Part shown: piece by piece, positions 2,540-55,415 of the stretch | Layout: each line of letters starts with the position of its first letter | Numbering within the stretch: the stretch's first letter is position 1 | Source: a virus | Reading direction: 5' to 3' (one strand) | Length of the DNA: 64,000 nucleotides | IMG/VR virus record: IMGVR_UViG_3300019472_000035 | Coordinates: 1 to 64,000 of that record | Program-made: the position numbers and the translations under genes | Notes under the pieces: generated by a model | What the model was told of the DNA's origin: nothing | What the model saw: the letters and a program-made list of their open reading frames with translations, nothing else | Databases searched by the model: none

Positions 2540-3148
2540 ATGGAAGAACTACAATTAAAACGAAAGAAGTCGTTCGAGAATCGGATTGATTTCTTTGGAT
2601 TGCAAGACTCTGTGACCGAACAGAGAAACGCTGGTAAGTCTTATGTTGCCATCGCACGAGCGTTAAACAAAGACAACCAGCAACACTTACAAGGGATTAT
2701 CATTACGCCTAAGATGGTTGGTGACTGGTGTCGGTCAAACCTTGTGGAAGAAAAAGTATCCAACAAGGAATACGAGGTTGTCAACACATACAATGAACAA
2801 AAGAATTTGTTGGAAATGGTTGAAACACAAATCGAAATGATTCAAGTATTTATTGATGATTTACAATGTCAACAAGCCGAGGGAACAATGTCGCCAGACA
2901 TCCTGTATAAACGCATGAAAGACCTAATGGGCGACCAAGAGAAATACTTTGGTCGTAAACAAGCGATTTTAAAAGATATGCAAGCAACGATGGAGAAAAT
3001 CTTTACGTTCCAAGCAATGAACTCTATTATTGTTGAAATCATGCGTATTATCACGGAAAAAGACCCTAAGTTGGCAGAACAAATCACTAAAGAAATGAAA
3101 ACAAATCAAATCTTATTGTCAAATTATGCAAAAATCCAACAAAATTAA
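2540..3148 (+). CDS. Putative terminase small subunit / DNA-binding packaging protein
   Basis: 202-aa ORF with a GGAGG RBS, immediately upstream of the large terminase. Assignment is positional plus an N-terminal HTH-like segment, with no strong motif. Confidence 0.4.
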   Translation: MEELQLKRKKSFENRIDFFGLQDSVTEQRNAGKSYVAIARALNKDNQQHLQGIIITPKMVGDWCRSNLVEEKVSNKEYEVVNTYNEQKNLLEMVETQIEMIQVFIDDLQCQQAEGTMSPDILYKRMKDLMGDQEKYFGRKQAILKDMQATMEKIFTFQAMNSIIVEIMRIITEKDPKLAEQITKEMKTNQILLSNYAKIQQN

Positions 3149-3234
3149 GAATATTTATCTGAATATTATAGAAAAACCTTAACTTTTTACTGGATTTTTT
3201 CACTATAAGTGAGAACAATTACCACTTAGGAGGT

Positions 3235-4920
3235 GTGTCCGTGGCTGAAAACATTTTGGACTCGCTATTGGGTGTGTCCGTGGCGAACACAGAGCCGTCA
3301 AGTGACACTCCATCTGATAAAGATATTGGTGCAACAGACTTGGAATATTTTGCCAAGACATATTTTCCGCATATCTTCTCAACGCCATTCTGTGAATTTC
3401 ATCACTCAATGTTCCGTGATGCGGAGAACATGATATTGCACTTTGACAATCTACACAATAAGTTCGTTCGTGCAGCACCACGAGGTCACGGCAAAAGCCG
3501 TATTATATCCGTTGTGTTTCCGATATGGCTAATTGTGTATGGTTATCGCAAGAACATACTGATTATTTCAGATACCTTTGAACAAGCCAAAGAGTTCATT
3601 CAAACAATCAAGGACGAACTAGAAGATAATGAACGCTTAAAAGCAGACTTTGGTCTGTTAAAGGGTGATAAAACATGGGCGAGCGATAAGATTGTCACCA
3701 AGAATAAAATACAAGTGTTTGCAAAATCAAGTGGTCAATCCTTGCGTGGTTCTTCATATAACAACATTCGTCCAGAAGTCGTAATCTTAGACGACTTAGA
3801 AAATGACGAAGCGGTGGAAACTGAAAATCAACGCAAGAAATTATACGATTGGTTCATGAAAGTATTAATGCCAATCGGTAACCCAAGAACTGTATTTTTG
3901 TATGTCGGTTCGGTTTTGCATTATGAGGCTTTGTTATACAAAGTATTGACCGACTCCAAGTTTAATAACTGGAATCGTGCCATATATAAAGCCGTGTATT
4001 CTTTTTCCAAAAGTCCACGATGGACTGTATGGGAAGAATTATTTAACGACTTGTCTGACCCAGATGCCGCACAACACGCATCCGATTATTTTAATGAACA
4101 CAAAGAAGAAATGATGGATGGCGTAGAGGTTATGTGGGAGGGTCGTAACTTTGGTCTGTTTGAACATTTAGATTGCTCGTTTGACGATAAGATGAAACTA
4201 TCTAGGGATAACTGGTATCAAGAACTCATGATTCTCAAAATGCAAGATGATGAAGCATTTAACTCCGAGTATCAAAATAATCCAATGACCGAAGCCAGTC
4301 GAATATTTAAAGAATCGTGGATTAAATCCAATTACTATGACGAAACAAATCTACCGCATATGAAACAAATTTATGCGGCGGTCGATGTGTCTATGGGTAA
4401 ATCACGAACATCTGACTATTCGGCAATCCTTATTGTTGGTCGTGGCGTTGACAATTATTTCTATGTACTGGAAGCAGATGTCGAACGTAGACCACCAGAT
4501 GCAATCATTAATGATATTCTCTTGTATCTCGACAAATACAACGGAAGATTGGACGGTTTTATTGTCGAAGAAAACGTATTCCAAGAGTTCTTTTCTAAGA
4601 CATTGCAACAAACCGCACTTGACATGGGTTTATATGTCAACTGGGTATCCGTTCGGTCTACTGCAAGTGACAACAAAGGTACACGCATCCGTTCGCTTGC
4701 TCCGAAGATTAAGCAAGGGTATATCAAGTTTAATAAAAACCATCGTATCTTGGAAAGTCAACTAAAGAACTTTCCTAAAGACCACGATGATGCACCAGAT
4801 TGCTTAGAACGATGTATTGCGAAGTTCTTAGAAAACTCTGCGACTATTGCAGTCGGTTCTATTGGCAGTCAGAACAAACGTAAAAACATTTTATCATTCA
4901 TGAAAGGTTGGAAACGATGA
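3235..4920 (+). CDS. terL: Terminase large subunit (ATPase + nuclease)
   Basis: Walker A-like PRGHGKSRI, Walker B VVILDDLEND, terminase_6-like C-terminal nuclease region. A GTG start at 3235 or 3241 after AGGAGG; the exact start is ambiguous. Confidence 0.85.
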   Translation: MSVAENILDSLLGVSVANTEPSSDTPSDKDIGATDLEYFAKTYFPHIFSTPFCEFHHSMFRDAENMILHFDNLHNKFVRAAPRGHGKSRIISVVFPIWLIVYGYRKNILIISDTFEQAKEFIQTIKDELEDNERLKADFGLLKGDKTWASDKIVTKNKIQVFAKSSGQSLRGSSYNNIRPEVVILDDLENDEAVETENQRKKLYDWFMKVLMPIGNPRTVFLYVGSVLHYEALLYKVLTDSKFNNWNRAIYKAVYSFSKSPRWTVWEELFNDLSDPDAAQHASDYFNEHKEEMMDGVEVMWEGRNFGLFEHLDCSFDDKMKLSRDNWYQELMILKMQDDEAFNSEYQNNPMTEASRIFKESWIKSNYYDETNLPHMKQIYAAVDVSMGKSRTSDYSAILIVGRGVDNYFYVLEADVERRPPDAIINDILLYLDKYNGRLDGFIVEENVFQEFFSKTLQQTALDMGLYVNWVSVRSTASDNKGTRIRSLAPKIKQGYIKFNKNHRILESQLKNFPKDHDDAPDCLERCIAKFLENSATIAVGSIGSQNKRKNILSFMKGWKR

Positions 4921-6224
4921 ATCTTAAACAACGAATCTTATCATGGATGAGTAAAACTATATTAAGAGATACGGTTGCCAATCTAAAGAATACTTGGTTG
5001 TCTTCTTTTAGATTCAACAATCGAGCAACCGAAACAAAACTTAGTGTAGAAGAACTACGGAATCTATCAAGAACACCGATTGTACGTTCTGCAATCAATC
5101 AAATCCGAGAGGGTATTCTTGCGTTGCCTTGGGAAGTGGTTTCCATTGATGGCAACGCAAATAAGAAACAAATCAAACAGGTTACACAGATTATTCAAAA
5201 TCCGAACCCTGTTGATGATTACAACGACTTCATTGGTAAGCTATTTGAAGACTTGATTGTCTTAGACCTTGCGTTCTTTGAACAAAAGGTGGTCAAGGGA
5301 TACAGACCTCTGTATTTATTTCCAATTGACACAGAAACAATCGAGGTAGCAACCAATTGGAGCGGTGACTTAAATCAACCACGATTCTTGCAATCCGTAA
5401 ATGGACATCAAGAGTGGTACAAGGTTGATAAAATCGCCATGTTACAACGCACGAAGTTGACATATGACGAGTTTGGCTTATCACCATTAGAGCAAGCATA
5501 TCGACATATCAAGTACTTAGCAGAAGTACAAGAGTATGCAAACGATATTTCTTCTAATGCGATGCCAAAGTATCTTGTTAACATGGGTGCATCCGCAAGT
5601 GAAGAAGAAATCGAAAAAATTCGGTTATACATTGCGAATGAAATCCAAGGTCAATCTGCGGTTGCAATCGTTGGGTCTGCACAATTGGATGCCAAACAGA
5701 TTTCACCGATTGGTGACGAAGCTGCATCCTTGAATTGGCAGAAAATGTTGTTACAAATCATTGCGACTTGTTTCAATATCCCTCCAGAACGCCTAGGTGT
5801 AGCGATTTCAAATGACCGTTCTACCTCATCTGAAAAAGATAATGAAATGTTGGAATATACGATTAAACCTTGGGCGAAGATTTTTGAACGAGCGTTTAAT
5901 AAATACGTGATTACACGTTTGGGTTATTCCGATAGTATTAAATTCCAATTCGTATTCACTCCAACCAAGGCACAACAGGCAGATGCCGTTGAACGTGTTC
6001 GTAAACTCGTTGATGGTAATATTATCACATTAAACGAAGCACGTCAAGAGTTAAATGGTGTCCTTGGTATCGAACTGAAAGATATTCCGTCTGGCGATTC
6101 GTTGCTGGAAGAATATAAATCATCTTTGATTCAAAAGCGTGTACAAGACGATGAACAAAAAACTGACACGACCGATGAAACGAAGAAATCTACAGAGAAA
6201 GGAGAAGCCGATGGAAAAACGTAA
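4908..6224 (+). CDS. Portal protein
   Basis: 438 aa directly after terL with an overlapping start. Acidic, Lys-rich C-terminus; position and size are typical of a portal. Confidence 0.7.
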   Translation: METMNLKQRILSWMSKTILRDTVANLKNTWLSSFRFNNRATETKLSVEELRNLSRTPIVRSAINQIREGILALPWEVVSIDGNANKKQIKQVTQIIQNPNPVDDYNDFIGKLFEDLIVLDLAFFEQKVVKGYRPLYLFPIDTETIEVATNWSGDLNQPRFLQSVNGHQEWYKVDKIAMLQRTKLTYDEFGLSPLEQAYRHIKYLAEVQEYANDISSNAMPKYLVNMGASASEEEIEKIRLYIANEIQGQSAVAIVGSAQLDAKQISPIGDEAASLNWQKMLLQIIATCFNIPPERLGVAISNDRSTSSEKDNEMLEYTIKPWAKIFERAFNKYVITRLGYSDSIKFQFVFTPTKAQQADAVERVRKLVDGNIITLNEARQELNGVLGIELKDIPSGDSLLEEYKSSLIQKRVQDDEQKTDTTDETKKSTEKGEADGKT

Positions 6225-7128
6225 AGTACAACTTAGTGCGAGTGCAATTAAGGTTATACTAGATAACCAACATACGAACTCCATGCGTTTTACTGGCACG
6301 TGTATGTTCCTGAATGAGCCGTCTGATTATATTCCCGGTGGTGTTGATAAACCTATAATGTTATCATCCGAGGTTGCAGAAACTTGTGCATCTACGATGA
6401 ACCTTATGGGTATCAATTGTGATTATGACCCTTGGTTATTCCCAGACGAAGTTATGATGGCACATGACCGTAGAAATAAAATTGGTGTGGTTGAAAAGTG
6501 TTGGGTTGACGGTAACGAACTTAAATTCACTGGTATTATCTACAAGAATGACTTTCCAGACGTTGCAGAGTTTATTAAAAAGACTGTAGACTCTCTAGGA
6601 TTCTCTGTGGAAGCCATTTCCAATATCCACGAGTTTGAAGACCATATTGAAATGGCGGATGTTGAATTCACTGGTGTTGCAATGTTGTTTAAAAACGCAG
6701 CTGCATACCAAAATACGTATATTGCAGAAATTGCCGCAAAGGCGAAAGGAAAACAACTAATGAACGAACAAGAAATTAAAGCCTTGGTTGATGAAGCCGT
6801 TAAAGCATCTATTGAAGCACAAGCACAAGCTAAAGCACAAGCGGAAGAAGCTAAAGCACTAAAAGATGCAAAAGCAGAAGTTGAACGCTTGACTGCTGAA
6901 TGTTCCGCTAAAGATGCATTGATTGTTGAAAAAGATGCAAAAATCGCAGAACTTGAAAAATCTGTTGAAACAAAAGATGCAGAAATCGAAGCTGGTAAAG
7001 CCGAAGCAGAAAAACAAACTGTAATTTCCGATGTTAAAAACTTGGAAACTAAGGCAAAACTAGAAGCTGGTAAATCTGACAAAGAATTTGATAACTTTGC
7101 AGATGGCATCGAAGCTATGTGTAAATAA
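6211..7128 (+). CDS. Scaffolding protein (possibly protease-scaffold fusion) with an Ala/Glu/Lys-rich coiled coil
   Basis: AGGAGA RBS then ATG at 6211. The C-terminal half is a long AEAKAK-type coiled coil typical of scaffolds. Lies between portal and capsid. Confidence 0.65.
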   Translation: MEKRKVQLSASAIKVILDNQHTNSMRFTGTCMFLNEPSDYIPGGVDKPIMLSSEVAETCASTMNLMGINCDYDPWLFPDEVMMAHDRRNKIGVVEKCWVDGNELKFTGIIYKNDFPDVAEFIKKTVDSLGFSVEAISNIHEFEDHIEMADVEFTGVAMLFKNAAAYQNTYIAEIAAKAKGKQLMNEQEIKALVDEAVKASIEAQAQAKAQAEEAKALKDAKAEVERLTAECSAKDALIVEKDAKIAELEKSVETKDAEIEAGKAEAEKQTVISDVKNLETKAKLEAGKSDKEFDNFADGIEAMCK

Positions 7129-7179
7129 TTACACATACTATTATTGTTGATTTGATTTTATATCATAGGAGAAATAACT

Positions 7180-8199
7180 GTGGCAGTAACAAAATCCAAA
7201 TTTATTACAGCAGCTGCCGTTGCTGATTATAACCAATCTCACTACATCGAGTTGCCTAAATTCCAAAACTTAATGGTTGACTTGTTAAACCGTAACGTAA
7301 CAATTCGTAATCGTATCACACCTGTGATGGCGACTGGGTATCCATCTCGTTATTGGGAACAAACTAAGATTGCACACAATGCGAAATTCGTAAATCCACG
7401 TACAGGCGACAACGGTAAATACGGTGTTGATACTTACGATGAAGATTACGGTCGTGTTGAAAAGGCAGTATACTTAAAGGCGATTACATCTGGTATTAAA
7501 TACTCTTTGTTTGATACAGAAGTTGTAGCACAACAAGGTGATGCCTTGGCAAAATCTTTGTTAAACAAAGACATGGAAGATATGATTGTGGACTTACTAC
7601 AAACATCCAACAAAGGTATCTGGACAGGTGCAGCAACCTCTGCCGATGATTCCACATCCGATGAATACTGTGGTTTGGCTACACAAATTACAGATGCAGT
7701 AACTGTGGCTAACCCTTATAGCTTTGCTACAGGTTCTGGTGATTTTGTAACAGATACAATTCGTACAAAGATGGCACAAAACTTGGCATCCACAAAATAC
7801 ATCGGTATGCCTACTGCAATCTACGCTAACCCATTGACAATCGACTACTTAAGCCGTGCAGAATTAAAACGCCCGGGATTTGCAGTCAACCAATCTGCGG
7901 ATAAAATGGACTTGGGGAATGGTTTCGTTGTAAATACCATCCGTACACAAGCTGGTTATTTACCATTAATTCCAGATAACTACATTCCATTTGACCCAAC
8001 AAACAAAAAACATACATTGTATGTTGTCAATGAAAAATTGATTGAACGTCATTACTTGACTAATGCAGAACCACGCATCTTCAAAATGGGTCTTACTAAA
8101 GGTCTATTGGACGAATACGTTGCAGTAATGTTCGATGCAATCGTTGCCAAAGGTGCTAGTGCTGGTGCCCACTTCAAGGTTGAATTTACTGAAGCGTAA
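7180..8199 (+). CDS. Major capsid protein
   Basis: 339 aa, GTG start after AGGAGAAATAACT, HK97-like position after the scaffold, followed by a terminator. Confidence 0.75.
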   Translation: MAVTKSKFITAAAVADYNQSHYIELPKFQNLMVDLLNRNVTIRNRITPVMATGYPSRYWEQTKIAHNAKFVNPRTGDNGKYGVDTYDEDYGRVEKAVYLKAITSGIKYSLFDTEVVAQQGDALAKSLLNKDMEDMIVDLLQTSNKGIWTGAATSADDSTSDEYCGLATQITDAVTVANPYSFATGSGDFVTDTIRTKMAQNLASTKYIGMPTAIYANPLTIDYLSRAELKRPGFAVNQSADKMDLGNGFVVNTIRTQAGYLPLIPDNYIPFDPTNKKHTLYVVNEKLIERHYLTNAEPRIFKMGLTKGLLDEYVAVMFDAIVAKGASAGAHFKVEFTEA

Positions 8200-35486: not shown

Positions 35487-35981
35487 ATGAAAACATTATA
35501 TATGGTTAAATACGGTTGTGGTCAATGGGAAGATTACCATGAAGATATTGAATGTATGTATGAAACATTTGAAGATGCCAAACATAAATGTCTACAGTTG
35601 CAATCTGAAATCGACAAACGATTACAAGATAATCAACATTGGTATGATACATTGAATAAACTGGATAATGAAGACATCGAAAGTGTTTATAATGAAATTG
35701 TTGGACAGACAACCTTTGTTGTTGCATTTTTTGAATTTGTTGATTCACCCAAGGATTTCCCAGAAATCTTAGGTTTGTTTGACAAAGATATGCAAGATAA
35801 GTTTCTATTGTATGCCGAAGCCGAAGAATACGTCAATTCAATCAGTATTTTTGATAACGAATGGGATAATCCACATTACTTTATGTCTATATACGAATGG
35901 TCAGACGATGGTTCGATGAAATGGGTTGATACCTTTGGTTCTGAAAAATTGGAGAATATGTCATGCTTCAAACAGAATTAA
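35487..35981 (+). CDS. Hypothetical acidic protein
   Basis: 164-aa ORF. Confidence 0.5.
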   Translation: MKTLYMVKYGCGQWEDYHEDIECMYETFEDAKHKCLQLQSEIDKRLQDNQHWYDTLNKLDNEDIESVYNEIVGQTTFVVAFFEFVDSPKDFPEILGLFDKDMQDKFLLYAEAEEYVNSISIFDNEWDNPHYFMSIYEWSDDGSMKWVDTFGSEKLENMSCFKQN

Positions 35982-36709
35982 TCACACGAGTGATGTTGTT
36001 TGACCAAGTAAATCAATGCCAAGGATTTTGCTGGGATACAAAACGTAAGCAGTTTATCTTGGCTACTATATCTGGTGATAATAAAACCCAAGATATTTTC
36101 CGTATTAGCTACGATGGCTCAATCACTATCAACTATCACTTTAACGATAGACCACGCCTTGGTCACATGAACACGTTGACATATCGGCGTGATACCGATG
36201 TGATATATACCACAAATGCAACAATAGATGGCTTCTTGTTGACGGCTTTGGATGCAAAATACCTATCAGTCAAAGAAGAAATAAAAATGCCATACAAGGT
36301 CTTTAACGTGGCGTATGACCCATTCACGCACAAGTTTGTATCCATTAGACCATACAAGAAAAATATTCGTTTAATTCAAGAATATAAATGCGTGGCAAAC
36401 GACAATAAACCGCAGTTCGTTCGTGAATATGAACTTGATTGTGAAAACGAAGATATTAATAATAATGGTGCTTTTGTGTTTTTAGATAATATTATTTTTA
36501 CAACCTTGACACATCTCGTAATCTATGATACATTTAATAATGTAAAGACGATGGTTGAACTGCCAAAGAACTTCGAGGTAGAAGACATTGATATTGTCGA
36601 TGGTCAGTTATACTGTAGTGTATACAGACCAAAAGGTATCGTTGAAATCCATCGTATTTTGGGATTAGATTCCCAATTGACAAAAAATGTTCGTCCTATT
36701 GGGTTTTAA
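35963..36709 (+). CDS. Hypothetical protein
   Basis: 248-aa ORF. Confidence 0.5.
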   Translation: MLQTELITRVMLFDQVNQCQGFCWDTKRKQFILATISGDNKTQDIFRISYDGSITINYHFNDRPRLGHMNTLTYRRDTDVIYTTNATIDGFLLTALDAKYLSVKEEIKMPYKVFNVAYDPFTHKFVSIRPYKKNIRLIQEYKCVANDNKPQFVREYELDCENEDINNNGAFVFLDNIIFTTLTHLVIYDTFNNVKTMVELPKNFEVEDIDIVDGQLYCSVYRPKGIVEIHRILGLDSQLTKNVRPIGF

Positions 36710-36742: not shown

Positions 36743-36909
36743 ATGAAAGTGGTATCTTACGAAGATTTATTTGGTTCAAATAATATTATCGCTTATTGCG
36801 AAGACCTAGCCATTGAAAAAGACGGCAAAAAGTACTTTTCTGTAGAGGTACTAAAGACAACATATTTTGAGTATTTAGACAGATGGGTACAGGAGGTAGA
36901 GTTTGAATG
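36743..36909 (+). CDS. Small hypothetical protein (55 aa, below the ORF-track cutoff)
   Basis: ACGGAGGTAGAAAATT RBS then ATG at 36743. The stop overlaps the next start (ATGA). Confidence 0.5.
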
Positions 36910-37638
36910 AACGTATTAATCGCTTGCGAGGAATCACAAACAGTATGTAAAGCGTTTAGACAACTTGGGTTTAATGCCTATAGTTGTGACATTGTGGAGT
37001 GTTCTGGAGAACATCCAGAGTGGCATTTCAAAGAAGACATCTTTGACGTAATCAAACGCAAAGGAGGTGTCACCCAAAGTGGCAATCTTGTGTTTGTTGA
37101 CAAATGGGATTTAATGATTGCACATCCACCATGTACGTTTTTATCATCCAGTGGTGCAAAATGGTATTATCACCCAGACGATAAGGATTTACCAATTGAA
37201 CAACGTAGACCGCATCCACGGTTTCCACATCGGAAACAAGACCAAGATGCAGCCGTTGATTTCTTCTTGGCGTTATACAATACGAACATTCCGTATATTG
37301 CCATTGAAAATCCTGTTGGTGTCATGTCAACACGTTTTCGTAAACCAGACCAGATTGTACAACCGTATATGTTTGGTAACGCAGCACGTAAGACCACTTG
37401 TTTGTGGCTTAAGGGTCTACCACTTTTAGAACCAACGAAACTTGTTTCGGAGGGCGAATCCATCGTATTCCGTAGTGGTAAAAAAATGCCAAAGTGGTAC
37501 TGCGATGCGTTGACAAATGCGAAAACCGATGCAGAACGCAGAAAACTACGGTCTAAAACATTTGATGGCATCGCACAAGCAATGGCATCTCAATGGGGAA
37601 CATTTGTTAAACACGAAATGGAGAAACGTAATGATTGA
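36907..37638 (+). CDS. Atypical DNA C5-cytosine methyltransferase-like protein. Motif IV PC and motif VI ENx present; AdoMet-binding Gly loop replaced by CEESQ.
   Basis: DLMIAHPPCTFLSSSG matches the D-h-h-x-A-x-x-P-C-x-x-F-S-x-x-G pattern of motif IV. IAIENPVG matches ENV. N-terminal VLIACEESQTVCKAFRQLGF aligns to motif I-II (hVLxLFxGxGG...AhxxxGF) but lacks the glycines. Confidence 0.55.
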   Translation: MNVLIACEESQTVCKAFRQLGFNAYSCDIVECSGEHPEWHFKEDIFDVIKRKGGVTQSGNLVFVDKWDLMIAHPPCTFLSSSGAKWYYHPDDKDLPIEQRRPHPRFPHRKQDQDAAVDFFLALYNTNIPYIAIENPVGVMSTRFRKPDQIVQPYMFGNAARKTTCLWLKGLPLLEPTKLVSEGESIVFRSGKKMPKWYCDALTNAKTDAERRKLRSKTFDGIAQAMASQWGTFVKHEMEKRND

Positions 37639-37897
37639 TTTCTTGGAAAAACATTATATCTTTTTCACACGATTTGTTTGGATTGTAACCTATATCGTTC
37701 TATTAGGTGTGCTTGATTTTTACAACGTATATAAAATCAACGATGTACCGACATTCATCTGTTTTATCTTCGGTATCTATTGGCTTGCCAAGATATTGAC
37801 TGCTATGATTGTCATTGGTGTTGCAGCCTTGTTACAAATCAATGTTGACATCGAATTAAAATCATCGTTTACAATCAACAATAAATACATTTTTTAG
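37631..37897 (+). CDS. Small membrane protein (2 TM)
   Basis: ATG at 37631 overlapping the upstream stop; hydrophobic FVWIVTYIVLLGVL ... IVIGVAALL. Confidence 0.5.
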   Translation: MIDFLEKHYIFFTRFVWIVTYIVLLGVLDFYNVYKINDVPTFICFIFGIYWLAKILTAMIVIGVAALLQINVDIELKSSFTINNKYIF

Positions 37898-37930
37898 ATT
37901 TAGTGTAGCGAAGCGAAACGAGGAAAAATT

Positions 37931-38845
37931 ATGAAATACAGAAACGGAAATGCGGTTGTCACCTTGGATTTACGAGATGGCACACGCATTATTGAATACC
38001 CAGACAACGAACCATTGACACTAGAAACGCCACTCAATATTGATATTCGTGTATCTACACAATGTCCATATGGCTATAATATGGAAACGCAGAAATCCAC
38101 TTGTGCATTTTGTCACGAATCTGCATTGGTTAGCGGAGTAGAATGTCACTATGGTGTTCTACAACAAGTATTGATGGATGCAAAATTACCACGTGGGACA
38201 GAAATCGCTCTAGGTGTAAACGAAGTCACAGATGATTTAATCCAGTTTGTAAAGAATTTATACCGACTTGGATTGGTTGTTAACATTACAATGAACGAAC
38301 GTTATATCTTACAATATGGCGATACAGGGTTAAAACAAATGTTACCCTATGTGTTTGGTCTTGGCATTTCTTATCGTTCGTTACAGGGGTGTTTATCACT
38401 GCCAGATTGGATTGCAGAATATCCACACACGGTTATTCATGTAATCAACGGTATTGACGACTTTGACGATGTAAAAGAATTAGGGGTTAAATACCGTAAG
38501 TTATTGGTCTTGGGTGAAAAAGACTTTGGGTTCAACCGTGGTAAAGTTAACTTGGATACACCAGAACACAAACAATGGAAATCCAACATTATGCAATTGA
38601 CAAAAATCTTTGACATTGTATCTTTTGATAACTTGGGGTTGCAACAATTAGAAATCCGTGGTAAAATTACAGATGAAGAATACAAATCGTTTTACCAAGG
38701 CGAACATTCCATGTATATTAATGCGGTGGAACAATATTTTGCTCCATCCAGTCGTACACGAAATAACATCAAGCACTTTGGTGAAACCGATTTACGTTCG
38801 TATTTTCAATGTTGCGAATTACAGGAGGTGTCGCATGATAATTAA
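37931..38845 (+). CDS. Cys-containing enzyme-like protein with a CX12CX2C cluster (possible variant radical-SAM/QueE-like or other metal-binding enzyme)
   Basis: RVSTQCPYGYNMETQKSTCAFCHES. Functional assignment is speculative. Confidence 0.35.
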   Translation: MKYRNGNAVVTLDLRDGTRIIEYPDNEPLTLETPLNIDIRVSTQCPYGYNMETQKSTCAFCHESALVSGVECHYGVLQQVLMDAKLPRGTEIALGVNEVTDDLIQFVKNLYRLGLVVNITMNERYILQYGDTGLKQMLPYVFGLGISYRSLQGCLSLPDWIAEYPHTVIHVINGIDDFDDVKELGVKYRKLLVLGEKDFGFNRGKVNLDTPEHKQWKSNIMQLTKIFDIVSFDNLGLQQLEIRGKITDEEYKSFYQGEHSMYINAVEQYFAPSSRTRNNIKHFGETDLRSYFQCCELQEVSHDN

Positions 38846-39374
38846 GCGAGTAGGTGTGTTTGAAACCAACAGTTCATCCGCACATTCTCTTGCGTATGGC
38901 ACAGACTATATCTTAAGGGGTTCTCGTTGGTATCAACCAACCGAAGAACACGACTTTAGTAATCCAATGTATCGTTTAGATAAAGTACCAGACCACTACC
39001 GAGGATACACATTTTATGAATGGCTTGGTGAGTACGGTTGGGGATACGATGTATTGACTACACCACAAGAAAAGTTTTCGTATCTGTTGACACAAATGGC
39101 GGATACATCGGAAGAATTACATGAATCAACCGATTACGAAACCATAAAAGAAATGATTGAAGATATTGGTTGTGAAATTATTCGATGTAATGACCAAGAT
39201 GGTTACGTTGACCATGAAAGCTATGGTATTGTTAACACATCGTTATTTAAGTCCAAAAAAGACTTGATTACGTATCTGTTTAATGATAACATTAGAGTAT
39301 ACATTGAAAACGACAATAGCGAATACCAAGAATGGTACACAGGTGAAAAACGTCACTCTTGGGGGTGCATATGA
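38835..39374 (+). CDS. Hypothetical protein (begins MIIKRVGVFETNSSSAHS)
   Basis: GGAGGTG RBS then ATG at 38835; no family recognised. Confidence 0.5.
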   Translation: MIIKRVGVFETNSSSAHSLAYGTDYILRGSRWYQPTEEHDFSNPMYRLDKVPDHYRGYTFYEWLGEYGWGYDVLTTPQEKFSYLLTQMADTSEELHESTDYETIKEMIEDIGCEIIRCNDQDGYVDHESYGIVNTSLFKSKKDLITYLFNDNIRVYIENDNSEYQEWYTGEKRHSWGCI

Positions 39375-39589
39375 CATATTCAGAAATACTAGATACAATA
39401 TCTATCGGCTCAAAGTGTTATCGAGAGTCGTGGAATGGAAGTGTTTATTTACGATATAAGGTTATGTTTGATGCCAATGGTATTCCTGTGGATAATGCAT
39501 TGGTTGAAATGACAGACCGTGAATACATTGGTATTTATACACCAGAGCCACGTGACCAGTTTGCAAACGATTGGATAATTGTCGAATGA
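39371..39589 (+). CDS. DUF2829-like small protein (possible Tad2-type anti-Thoeris sponge family)
   Basis: N-terminus MTYSEILDTISIGSKCYRESWNG fits the DUF2829 pattern (M.F.EAL.A.K.GK.V.R.GWNG) as recalled; 72 aa; ATGA overlap start. Confidence 0.45.
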   Translation: MTYSEILDTISIGSKCYRESWNGSVYLRYKVMFDANGIPVDNALVEMTDREYIGIYTPEPRDQFANDWIIVE

Positions 39590-40479
39590 AATTTATAGAT
39601 TTATTCTCTGGCATCGGTGGTTTTCACTCTGGCTTAACCAAAGCTGGTATGAAATGCGTTGGTTGGTGCGAACAAGATAAATACGCACAAGCATCATACC
39701 GTGCGTTATACCCAACAGATAATCTTTGGTTTTCACCAGATATTCGTGCATTAAACGGTACAGAGATGCCGTATGCAGACTTATGGTGCTTCGGTTTCCC
39801 ATGCCAAGATGTGTCTATTGCTGGACTAAAAGATGGTATGGGAAATACACGAAGCGGTTTATTTTACGAAGTCACGAGGTTACTACATGAAACAAAACAT
39901 AAACCCAAATGGTTGCTTATTGAGAATGTTAAAAACCTCTTGTCAATCAGTAATGGATGGGGATTTTACGGCGTTTTGTCTGAAATGGACAAAGCAGGGT
40001 ACAGTATCGCATGGCGTGTGTATAACACAAAAGACTTTGGACTACCACAAAACCGTGAAAGGTTGTTCATTATCGGACATCTTGGAAACGACTGTCCATC
40101 CGAAGTATTATACCGACCCAACCAAAGCGAACAATCTATTGTTCAAGTCGGAAATATAATACGTACAACATCTTTTGATGGGAATCCACAACGAGGTCGC
40201 ATATATTCACCACATGGGTTATCCCCAACTTTGACGTGTGTCAAGGGCGGTGGTATTGAACCAAAGATATTATTAAGTCGCAATCCCAATGTAATACGCA
40301 AGTTGACCCCAAGAGAGTTCTGGCGACTACAGGGTTTTACAGACCAACAATTTGAAACTTGTGCTAAGATACAGTCCAACGCACAATTGTATAAACAGGC
40401 TGGGAATTCCGTGTCTATACCGATTGTATATGAACTTGGGAAGAAGATTGTTGAATACCACAGGAGGTTACATGGATAA
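39586..40479 (+). CDS. dcm: DNA (cytosine-5)-methyltransferase, canonical
   Basis: Motif I FIDLFSGIGGF, motif IV GFPCQDVSIAG, motif VI ENVKNL, motif X QAGNSVSIPIV. Confidence 0.9.
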   Translation: MKFIDLFSGIGGFHSGLTKAGMKCVGWCEQDKYAQASYRALYPTDNLWFSPDIRALNGTEMPYADLWCFGFPCQDVSIAGLKDGMGNTRSGLFYEVTRLLHETKHKPKWLLIENVKNLLSISNGWGFYGVLSEMDKAGYSIAWRVYNTKDFGLPQNRERLFIIGHLGNDCPSEVLYRPNQSEQSIVQVGNIIRTTSFDGNPQRGRIYSPHGLSPTLTCVKGGGIEPKILLSRNPNVIRKLTPREFWRLQGFTDQQFETCAKIQSNAQLYKQAGNSVSIPIVYELGKKIVEYHRRLHG

Positions 40480-54749: not shown

Positions 54750-55415
54750 ATGCAAGTAACATTACAGAACTATACACCGCTTGATACGGCTGTACACGCA
54801 ATGGGTCAATGCTATGGAAAAACCCTTGGGGTGGATGCATTGGTGCGAGCCGTTCATAGCGGTCATTTATCACTATTGGAACACACGCTGGTAACATTCG
54901 ATATTGAAATGTCGCAAAAATGCCTTGCACAGATTACACGACACAGACATTTGTCTTTCACGGTCAAATCTACACGTGGCACAGACTTTGCGGATTCTAC
55001 ATGGTTTGATTCAACCGAACATCCAGAAATTACCAAAGACATGGGTCAACTCATGAATAAATTAATCGAAAATCAAATTCTGGAATACAGACGGTTGGTT
55101 GATGCTGGTGTGCCGTACCAAGTTGCAGCCTATGTGTTACCATTGGCAACCAATGTAACAATGACCGTAAGTGGTTCGCTTAGAACATGGATGGAGTATT
55201 TACCCAAGCGGTTATGCAAACGTGCATCTACGGAACACCAACAAGTGGCACGAGAGATTTACCACAAATTAAATGCGGTTTATCCATCGTTGGTAAATTT
55301 GGAGATGCTTGGGATGTGTAGCGGTTGTAAAGAAACCTCATGTGATTTTACAACACATAAGAAACAACCGAAAACACCTGTTGTTGTTGAATTACGGAAA
55401 TCGGAGGATAAATAA
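54750..55415 (+). CDS. thyX: Flavin-dependent thymidylate synthase ThyX
   Basis: ThyX signature ITRHRHLSFTVKSTR (RHR-x7-S). Confidence 0.8.
   Translation: MQVTLQNYTPLDTAVHAMGQCYGKTLGVDALVRAVHSGHLSLLEHTLVTFDIEMSQKCLAQITRHRHLSFTVKSTRGTDFADSTWFDSTEHPEITKDMGQLMNKLIENQILEYRRLVDAGVPYQVAAYVLPLATNVTMTVSGSLRTWMEYLPKRLCKRASTEHQQVAREIYHKLNAVYPSLVNLEMLGMCSGCKETSCDFTTHKKQPKTPVVVELRKSEDK

Follow-up and report, generated by a model that had tools for sequence, protein, structure and literature searches.

This analysis concerns positions 36743-40479 of a 64,000-nucleotide viral DNA (IMG/VR record IMGVR_UViG_3300019472_000035, positions 1 to 64,000; the whole stretch is called the window hereafter), where genes for a 243-aa putative compact C5-cytosine methyltransferase, a 304-aa radical S-adenosylmethionine (radical-SAM) enzyme, a 179-aa protein, a 72-aa Tad2-like (DUF2829) protein and a 297-aa Dcm-type methyltransferase lie close together (Table 1). 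An earlier reading of the letters of this DNA, referred to here as the original prediction, had proposed that these genes form a single co-functional DNA modification module. By fold assignment and linkage statistics the locus instead decomposes into three units, namely the compact methylase, a radical-SAM cassette and the Dcm. We put the probability of the whole explanation, in which the three are functionally independent and merely share a tightly packed early/replication-module stretch, at about 0.62. Both methylases are ordinary: one adds a new member to a known family, and the other is a canonical Dcm. Once the locus is re-partitioned in this way, a radical-SAM enzyme and its strictly linked partner stand out as the part meriting follow-up.

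Linkage of the radical-SAM gene to a partner gene

A total of 80 IMG/VR loci with the radical-SAM gene were fetched, and the 49 distant ones (32-60% identity) were counted. A member of the 179-aa family, as recognized by a hidden Markov model, adjoins the radical-SAM gene in all 49, whereas the 243-aa family occurs in 1 and a Dcm in 0. The methylases are therefore independent of the radical-SAM/partner pair, and the single co-functional module does not survive this count. Typically the end of the partner gene coincides with the start of the radical-SAM gene, and 2-5 partner paralogues are often found at one locus. No third component of the cassette is conserved among the distant loci, the next best family being present in 8 of 49. 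Additionally, the partner and the radical-SAM domain are fused in one chain in six proteins (P0256, P0333, P0348, P0355, P0380 and P0381). The radical-SAM enzyme and the 179-aa protein are a strictly linked and widespread two-component phage cassette.

An exhaustive profile search with the 304-aa family recovered approximately 975 representative clusters (50% identity), with occurrences in gut phages, jumbo phages, Lak megaphages and a cultured cyanophage, the Microcystis phage Ma-LMM01. In Ma-LMM01 (NC_008562.1, 129804-131610) the cassette pair corresponds to gp128 and gp130, and this cultured pair would be a tractable experimental system for the cassette. The first of the two is annotated as an 'Fe-S oxidoreductase' and the second, which contains VFETNSSSTHS, as hypothetical; the pair adjoins a gene annotated as a histidyl tRNA synthetase. 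Literature searches on the cassette, on Ma-LMM01 gp128 and on DUF2829 together with radical SAM returned nothing relevant, and no annotation of the function of the cassette was found.

The 304-aa protein is a variant radical-SAM enzyme

The original prediction had proposed a variant radical-SAM enzyme on the basis of a CX12CX2C cluster, and the 304-aa protein is indeed a true, variant member of this class. In the family alignment the majority of relatives read D-x-K-I-T-N-x-C-x3-C-x2-C-H-E, and the window protein and its nearest clade carry an insertion after the first cysteine that turns the motif into CX12CX2C. Of the three cysteines, C45 and C61 are invariant and C58 is conserved to at least 90%, and all three align with the canonical CX3CX2C cysteines. 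This alignment holds no conserved cysteine beyond these three, and the auxiliary-cluster cysteines of SPASM/twitch domains are lacking. The radical-SAM profile PF04055 is matched by 29 of the 49 aligned relatives (best E 1.9e-10) and gives no match to the window protein itself. At the position of the GGE-type SAM-binding motif, relatives have A-I-G-G-G-N-P and the window protein has A-L-G-V-N-E-V.

The protein has the partial TIM-barrel fold of radical-SAM enzymes and was modelled with AlphaFold2 at a predicted local distance difference test (pLDDT) score of 95.1. Among known folds it comes closest to peptide and protein maturases (SkfB, SuiB, EpeE, PqqE and anSME). Sequence and profile searches were consistent with the class and gave no closer name: NCBIfam returned weak generic radical-SAM matches with none above threshold, Pfam returned no match above threshold, PDB sequence searches with the protein and with the family profile returned weak generic radical-SAM matches only, and the BFVD matches were unnamed phage radical-SAM proteins only.

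A QueE or 7-deazaguanine identity was ruled out by the fold ranking, since QueE was the closest match neither by fold nor by profile. The resemblance to QueE drawn in the original prediction gives way to the maturases in this ranking; what QueE and the 304-aa protein have in common is a radical-SAM motif with extra residues between the first two cluster cysteines.

Two homologues of the 304-aa protein (P0344 and P0359) are interrupted by inteins that split the cluster motif exactly between C-x3-C-P-M and C-H-E. Both inteins are Hint domains, and that of P0359 also has a homing-endonuclease-like insert. Inteins often sit at catalytic sites, and their position inside the cluster motif points to this loop as the functional core of the enzyme.

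The partner family and its Tad2-like domain

The sole near-universal feature of the partner family is an N-terminal motif, [F]-E-[TS]-N-S-S-S-x-H, which is kept by 149 of 152 unique partner-family open reading frames (ORFs). Two further motifs, DHxS and NDN, are found in 87 and 88 of the 152, respectively (~57%), and 58 (38%) have the N-terminal motif without either. From the DH...N...NDN motifs of its sequence, the 179-aa protein was also considered as a possible His-Me (HNH-like) nuclease. The family is without a match in Pfam, NCBIfam, PDB (by sequence and by profile) and PADLOC, and falls only in phrog_28997.

A Tad2-like domain of the PF11195 family forms the C-terminus of many 262-aa partner homologues; in the window this domain is encoded as a separate 72-aa gene. 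The original prediction had recognized this gene as DUF2829-like, which agrees with its full-length match to PF11195 (E 9.8e-10; 39.3 bits, with the cut-off at 25). With Tad2 and AcrIIA7 the 72-aa protein shares the PF11195 domain, and it aligns weakly to the PDB chains of both (Tad2 E 0.006). Fusion to the 179-aa partner family, as seen in relatives, is an architecture not described for Tad2. In three close relatives (L005, L006 and L008, at ~5700-8000) the radical-SAM gene is followed by three partner paralogues, one of them fused to a Tad2-like domain. Compared with these, the single paralogue and split Tad2-like gene of the window make its cassette look reduced.

Possible roles of the cassette

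Combined, the maturase fold neighbours, the single enzyme gene per array of divergent paralogues and the Ser/His-rich loop as the only universal partner feature favour a model in which the radical-SAM enzyme would act as a protein maturase on the FETNSSSxHS loop of its partners. The 179-aa and Tad2-like proteins would then belong with the enzyme to one conserved two-component cassette, and the matured partner, in many cases attached to a Tad2-like domain that may bind nucleotides, would execute the function, possibly in counter-defence. A precedent for modifying a Ser/His-rich loop exists in the HXS defence system, where the SHRSS motif of the effector undergoes radical-SAM maturation. We hold this maturase model tentatively. 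The 304-aa family differs from the known radical-SAM maturases (SkfB, SuiB, EpeE/YydG, PqqE and anSME, together with HxsB/HxsC of the HXS system) in having no conserved SPASM/twitch cysteines, and its partners are proteins of 120-300 aa, in contrast to the short peptides of known maturases. Also unlike those maturases, the phage enzyme is sometimes fused to its partner.

Three points weigh against the maturase model. The fusions of partner and enzyme would suit a two-domain enzyme no less well than a maturase and its substrate, the DHxS and NDN motifs kept by ~57% of the partner proteins look catalytic, and the cassette may have a part in modifying nucleic acids. The same fusions, together with the similarity to viperin and the Tad2-like domain, speak for another possible account, which we rate slightly below the maturase model: the two proteins would be two enzymes or domains of a small-molecule or nucleotide pathway, either performing a viperin-like conversion or destroying or altering an immune signalling nucleotide, with the Tad2-like domain binding the ligand. 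That account has to accommodate the 38% of partner paralogues that keep the N-terminal motif only, the failure of Pfam, PDB, NCBIfam and PADLOC searches to link the family to a known hydrolase, and the 2-5 divergent paralogues per single radical-SAM gene, a pattern more typical of substrates than of pathway enzymes.

The maturase model can be extended, more speculatively still, to an undescribed phage maturation system. In this rather unlikely form, a radical-derived change such as Ser/His oxidation or cross-linking would be introduced in the N-terminal loop of one to five paralogous partners, making an active or ligand site from modified residues that, with the Tad2-like domain as a putative nucleotide binder, would act against host immune signalling or on nucleotides. 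The FETNSSSxHS cassette is a very widespread variant of the pattern of a radical-SAM enzyme plus a dedicated partner, and the fusions, the paralogue arrays and the Tad2-like link are leads that could bring a new radical-SAM reaction of phages to light.

The 243-aa protein belongs to a large family of compact C5-methyltransferases

The 243-aa protein has the class I methyltransferase catalytic-domain fold common to M.HhaI, M.HaeIII and the DNMTs, and it matches the profile of phrog_757, labelled 'DNA methyltransferase', over the full length of the profile (E 4.2e-61, residues 1-241). The C5-methyltransferase fold that the original prediction had assigned to it therefore holds, and the protein was not placed in an unrelated fold. 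The family phrog_757 is a very large one of 'mini' C5-methyltransferases of ~200-245 aa. A search with the window protein returned at least 8000 relatives, and 338 cultured-phage records carry a homologue, annotated as DNA methyltransferase, cytosine methyltransferase or hypothetical.

Canonical C5-methyltransferases (PF00145; M.HhaI, M.HaeIII, CmoX) differ from this protein in several respects. The window protein has neither a PF00145 match nor the glycine loop of motif I, its target-recognition region covers ~40 residues compared with at least 80, and sequence identity is 10-15%. No Pfam or NCBIfam family, including PF00145 and TIGR00675, was matched at E up to 1, and PDB sequence searches with the protein and with its family profile gave no useful match. 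In alignments of the family profile to C5-methyltransferases with hhalign, only the PC-motif stretch was aligned; HPPCT was paired with the FPC motif of the Dcm from the same window, and no other stretch was. The homology to C5-methyltransferases thus rests on the fold, on the motifs and on a weak link between the T1-like Dcm discussed below and the canonical phrog_363.

Conservation was assessed over 21 homologues spread across phyla. Invariant elements are ACEESQ, SCD (residues 26-28), HPPCT with the predicted catalytic Cys76, RRPHP, E134-N135 of the IENP motif (P136 nearly so), K-TC-W and RSKTF; ENP is also present in all distant phrog_757 members that were aligned. Relatives from Campylobacter, Macrococcus and an alphaproteobacterial metagenome bin still reach 63-66% identity. 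Identity of 65% across phyla, combined with an invariant Cys76 and Glu134, indicates strong purifying selection on the family.

Motif I does not have the F-x-G-x-G form, as both glycines are replaced (ACEESQ). Across the family this motif is graded, from LFDGSG in a Drexlerviridae Dcm through LCDFTG in P1-like plasmids and CEFSG/CEYSG in Rhodovastum and a Burkholderia phage to ACEESQ in the window clade, and each of the four sequences checked falls in phrog_757. Judged from these sequences, CEESQ appears to be a derived motif I at the far end of a graded series rather than a sign of lost catalysis; the loss of both glycines is real and confined to the CEESQ clade.

Further copies lie on plasmids. 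P1-like phage-plasmids of ~90 kb, such as the Escherichia coli plasmid pRHB04-C06_3 (1430-2978), encode a phrog_757 member with the motif I LCDFTG; it is annotated as hypothetical, and its gene runs into the beginning of a gene for a Dam-family adenine methylase. The Levilactobacillus brevis plasmid pl12112-1 contains an unannotated mini-methylase copy (~3000-3600) with an apparent frameshift near the 3' end, which is probably a pseudogene.

Operon context and a methylating relative of the 243-aa protein

Bacterial genomes were scanned for homologues, and the best 80 loci (57-66% identity) were analysed; three Helicobacter pylori strains are among them. An M1-type PF00145 methylase lies immediately upstream in 72 of the 80, ending at the start of the mini-methylase, and an McrB-like AAA_5 gene (R1) lies just downstream in 55, often followed by an RE_LlaJI gene. 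LlaJI systems are laid out as two 5-methylcytosine (5mC) methylases followed by R1 and R2, and their target is GACGC/GCGTC (PMC1459862, PMC12707154, PMC11779793). The bacterial order of M1 (PF00145, ~415 aa), mini-methylase, R1 (AAA_5/McrB-like) and R2 (RE_LlaJI) places the homologues of the window protein in the slot of the second methylase, M2, as in Lactococcus lactis pNP40 and its counterparts in H. pylori, Campylobacter and Macrococcus. The window protein and these M2 homologues are equal in size and have CEESQ, HPPCT, RRPHP, IENP and RSKTF in common. Equivalence to the named prototype, M2.LlaJI of pNP40, is drawn from operon architecture. Unlike a LlaJI-type M2, the phage copy stands alone as an orphan: M1, R1 and R2 are all missing beside it.

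A second comparison is offered by the 236-aa Dcm of a KarlJaspers-like Drexlerviridae phage (K42), which places 5mC on the multicopy single-stranded DNA of retron Ec86, as measured by liquid chromatography-mass spectrometry (bioRxiv 10.1101/2023.08.16.553469). The same study used a mutant of catalytic and substrate-binding residues as the negative control and names Cys82 as catalytic, with Glu128 and Lys175/176 (bioRxiv 10.1101/2023.08.16.553469). This numbering fits the PSC, ENP and RKK positions of a 231-aa Klebsiella-phage homologue. The Drexlerviridae (T1-like) Dcm, the trigger of retron Ec86, is likewise compact (~231-236 aa) and falls in the same PHROG as the window protein (phrog_757, 1.6e-80), with a weak match also to the canonical phrog_363. 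The two proteins have P(P/S)C, ENP, (R/K)K-TC-W and RS-T-G-A in common; they are only ~27% identical, motif I reads LFDGSG with its glycine in one and ACEESQ in the other, and the Drexlerviridae protein is without the RRPHPxFP insertion. Its target is CCWGG, a site missing from the window.

From this evidence we infer that the 243-aa protein works as a C5-cytosine DNA methyltransferase of the compact phrog_757 type and is a member of the LlaJI-type M2 clade, carried as an orphan in the phage. Its product would be 5mC, probably on one strand of GACGC/GCGTC, given the 62-66% identity to operon-borne M2 proteins, and the orphan methylase would blunt restriction of the phage by LlaJI-type or HgaI-type enzymes. 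A glycine-less C5-methyltransferase of this kind belongs to a long-annotated methylase family that is very common in phages and restriction systems, and no new chemistry is needed to account for it.

Several points tell against this assignment. Both motif I glycines are lost in the CEESQ clade, so that ordinary SAM binding is an assumption; no study of SAM binding by this clade was found in the literature, and this clade, the M2 of LlaJI-type systems, may have a non-canonical mode of methyl-donor binding. For the links to M2.LlaJI of pNP40 and to the K42 Dcm, the evidence is operon position, size, published residue numbers and PHROG membership. In addition, GACGC is nearly absent from the window (3 copies), which is not obviously expected of a phage that methylates GACGC/GCGTC, and the specificity of the protein may be another one.

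The original prediction had raised a pseudoenzyme or an exotic cofactor for this protein. A catalytically dead protein that has lost the SAM glycine loop and serves, for example, as a DNA-binding regulator or as a decoy for a restriction complex would account for CEESQ in place of FxGxG, for the missing PF00145 match and for the very small motif VIII-IX stretch. The invariance of Cys76 and of the ENP Glu134 across phyla would be unexpected in a dead enzyme, and the Glu, Ser and Gln of the loop are themselves invariant, which suggests a functional ligand-binding loop. LlaJI-type operons, moreover, require both methylases for full modification and for host viability (PMC12707154). We consider the dead-enzyme account improbable. 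Purifying selection, the M2 position and a PHROG shared with a Drexlerviridae Dcm of the kind that makes 5mC all argue against the proposal as originally worded, and for a working methyltransferase.

Restriction-site avoidance and the hypermodification proposal

Restriction sites were counted on both strands of the 64-kb window. GATC (expected ~504), GGCC (~143), GCGC (~106) and GAGAC (~52) do not occur at all, nor does CCWGG, for which CCAGG alone would be expected ~36 times. CGCG is found 2 times (expected ~123), CCGG 10 times (~162) and CCTTC once, and the 3 copies of GACGC compare with 52 ± 7 expected by shuffling and 34 under a Markov model. Many 6-bp palindromes are also nearly absent (AAGCTT 0, TTCGAA 0, TCTAGA 0, ATCGAT 2, GATATC 2).

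Such extreme avoidance indicates that the phage DNA is exposed to ordinary restriction enzymes, and selection of this kind is hard to reconcile with blanket base modification. Owing to the site losses, the classical Dcm-type targets are missing from the DNA of the phage itself. The pattern implies that the phage relies mainly on site loss and that its host is rich in restriction systems.

These counts bear on the cytosine hypermodification suggested in the original prediction. In its full form, all five genes would make up one pathway, in which the CEESQ protein attaches a C5 adduct other than methyl or relies on a different cofactor, and the product is then elaborated by the radical-SAM enzyme and its partners. 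The avoidance of GATC, GGCC, GCGC, CCWGG and GACGC argues against global modification, and we regard the one-pathway scheme as very improbable.

The 297-aa Dcm

The gene that the original prediction called a textbook Dcm bears out the description. Its product matches PF00145 (E 4.6e-66) and TIGR00675 (4.2e-64), has the FSGIGG, FPC and ENV motifs, and has M.HhaI as its best PDB relative (6.8e-39). It is absent or truncated in four close relatives (L028, L029, L031 and L032). The 297-aa protein, the third unit of the locus, is an ordinary orphan C5-methyltransferase with a patchy distribution among close relatives.

Locus layout and neighbouring genes

The window has the appearance of a phage genome of ~64-70 kb that is complete or nearly so. 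Its relatives are uncultured Caudoviricetes contigs of 64-73 kb, and no DNA near-identical to it was found among the cultured phages searched. Coordinates of the genes and motifs are collected in Table 1.

Table 1. Genes and motifs of the locus and other genes of the window (window coordinates).
Feature	Position	Strand	Remarks
248-aa gene	35963-36709		upstream of the region
55-aa ORF	36743-36910	+	ATGA overlap onto the 243-aa gene; without Pfam or PHROG match
243-aa putative mini C5-cytosine methyltransferase	36907-37638	+	phrog_757; M2-of-LlaJI type
Degenerate motif I loop A-C-E-E-S-Q (residues 6-11)	36922-36939	+	invariant in 21 close homologues
Motif IV H-P-P-C-T (residues 73-77)	37123-37137	+	predicted catalytic Cys76; invariant in close homologues
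Motif VI I-E-N-P (residues 133-136)	37303-37314	+	E134 and N135 invariant, P136 nearly so, in close homologues
88-aa hydrophobic small protein	37631-37897	+	no Pfam or PHROG match
304-aa radical-SAM enzyme	37931-38845	+	phrog_16999, label 'Fe-S oxidoreductase'
Cluster motif C45-X12-C58-X2-C61	38063-38113	+	canonical CX3CX2C with 9-residue loop insertion
179-aa radical-SAM partner protein	38835-39374	+	phrog_28997; protein begins MIIKRVGVFETNSSSAHS
N-terminal motif F-E-T-N-S-S-S-A-H-S (residues 9-18)	38859-38888	+	conserved in the 179-aa family
72-aa Tad2-like/DUF2829 protein	39371-39589	+	PF11195 match
297-aa canonical orphan C5-cytosine methyltransferase, Dcm-type	39586-40479	+	PF00145, TIGR00675
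DUF6275 protein	40472-40777	+	PF19791, E 4.5e-23
DnaB-like helicase	40764-41921	+	directly after the DUF6275 gene
tRNA genes Ser-GCT, Thr-TGT, Ser-TGA	42826-43300		
dNMP kinase	44906-45580		
dUTPase	47150-47650		
ThyX	54750-55415		
Pol III alpha-type replicase, 1048 aa	28161-31307	-	PHP, DNA_pol3_alpha and finger domains

The gene calls and quoted motifs of the original prediction (CEESQ, motif IV, IENP and CX12CX2C) all lie where it had placed them, and the genes that it named for the module are present; its list had passed over the 88-aa ORF between the 243-aa and 304-aa genes. Confident matches to this small protein (at least 86% identity) occur only in some of the closest relatives, with weak ones (24-31%) in a few other relatives. 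The chaining of genes by overlaps was likewise correct for most of the stretch: between 36743 and 41921, 7 of the 8 junctions overlap (by 4, 8, 11, 4, 4, 8 and 14 nt), with the exception of 37897/37931, where a 33-nt spacer carries a ribosome-binding site. Tight packing runs on upstream of the region and downstream into the DnaB-like helicase gene, and gene overlap is therefore no marker of a module. The DUF6275 gene and the helicase gene are a continuation of the replication module and stand outside any modification unit.

As the original prediction had reported, the window encodes ThyX, a dUTPase and a deoxynucleoside monophosphate (dNMP) kinase; a DnaG-type primase, a DNA polymerase III (Pol III) alpha and RusA are also encoded. 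The Pol III alpha-type gene is the sole large gene on the minus strand, the rest of the genome being on the plus strand. The three tRNA genes lie shortly downstream of the helicase gene, within an ORF-poor stretch (42000-43700).

In five relatives (L013, L016, L022, L026 and L027) the 248-aa gene, which precedes the region in the window, separates the 179-aa gene from the Dcm, and this shifted position shows local gene shuffling in the region.

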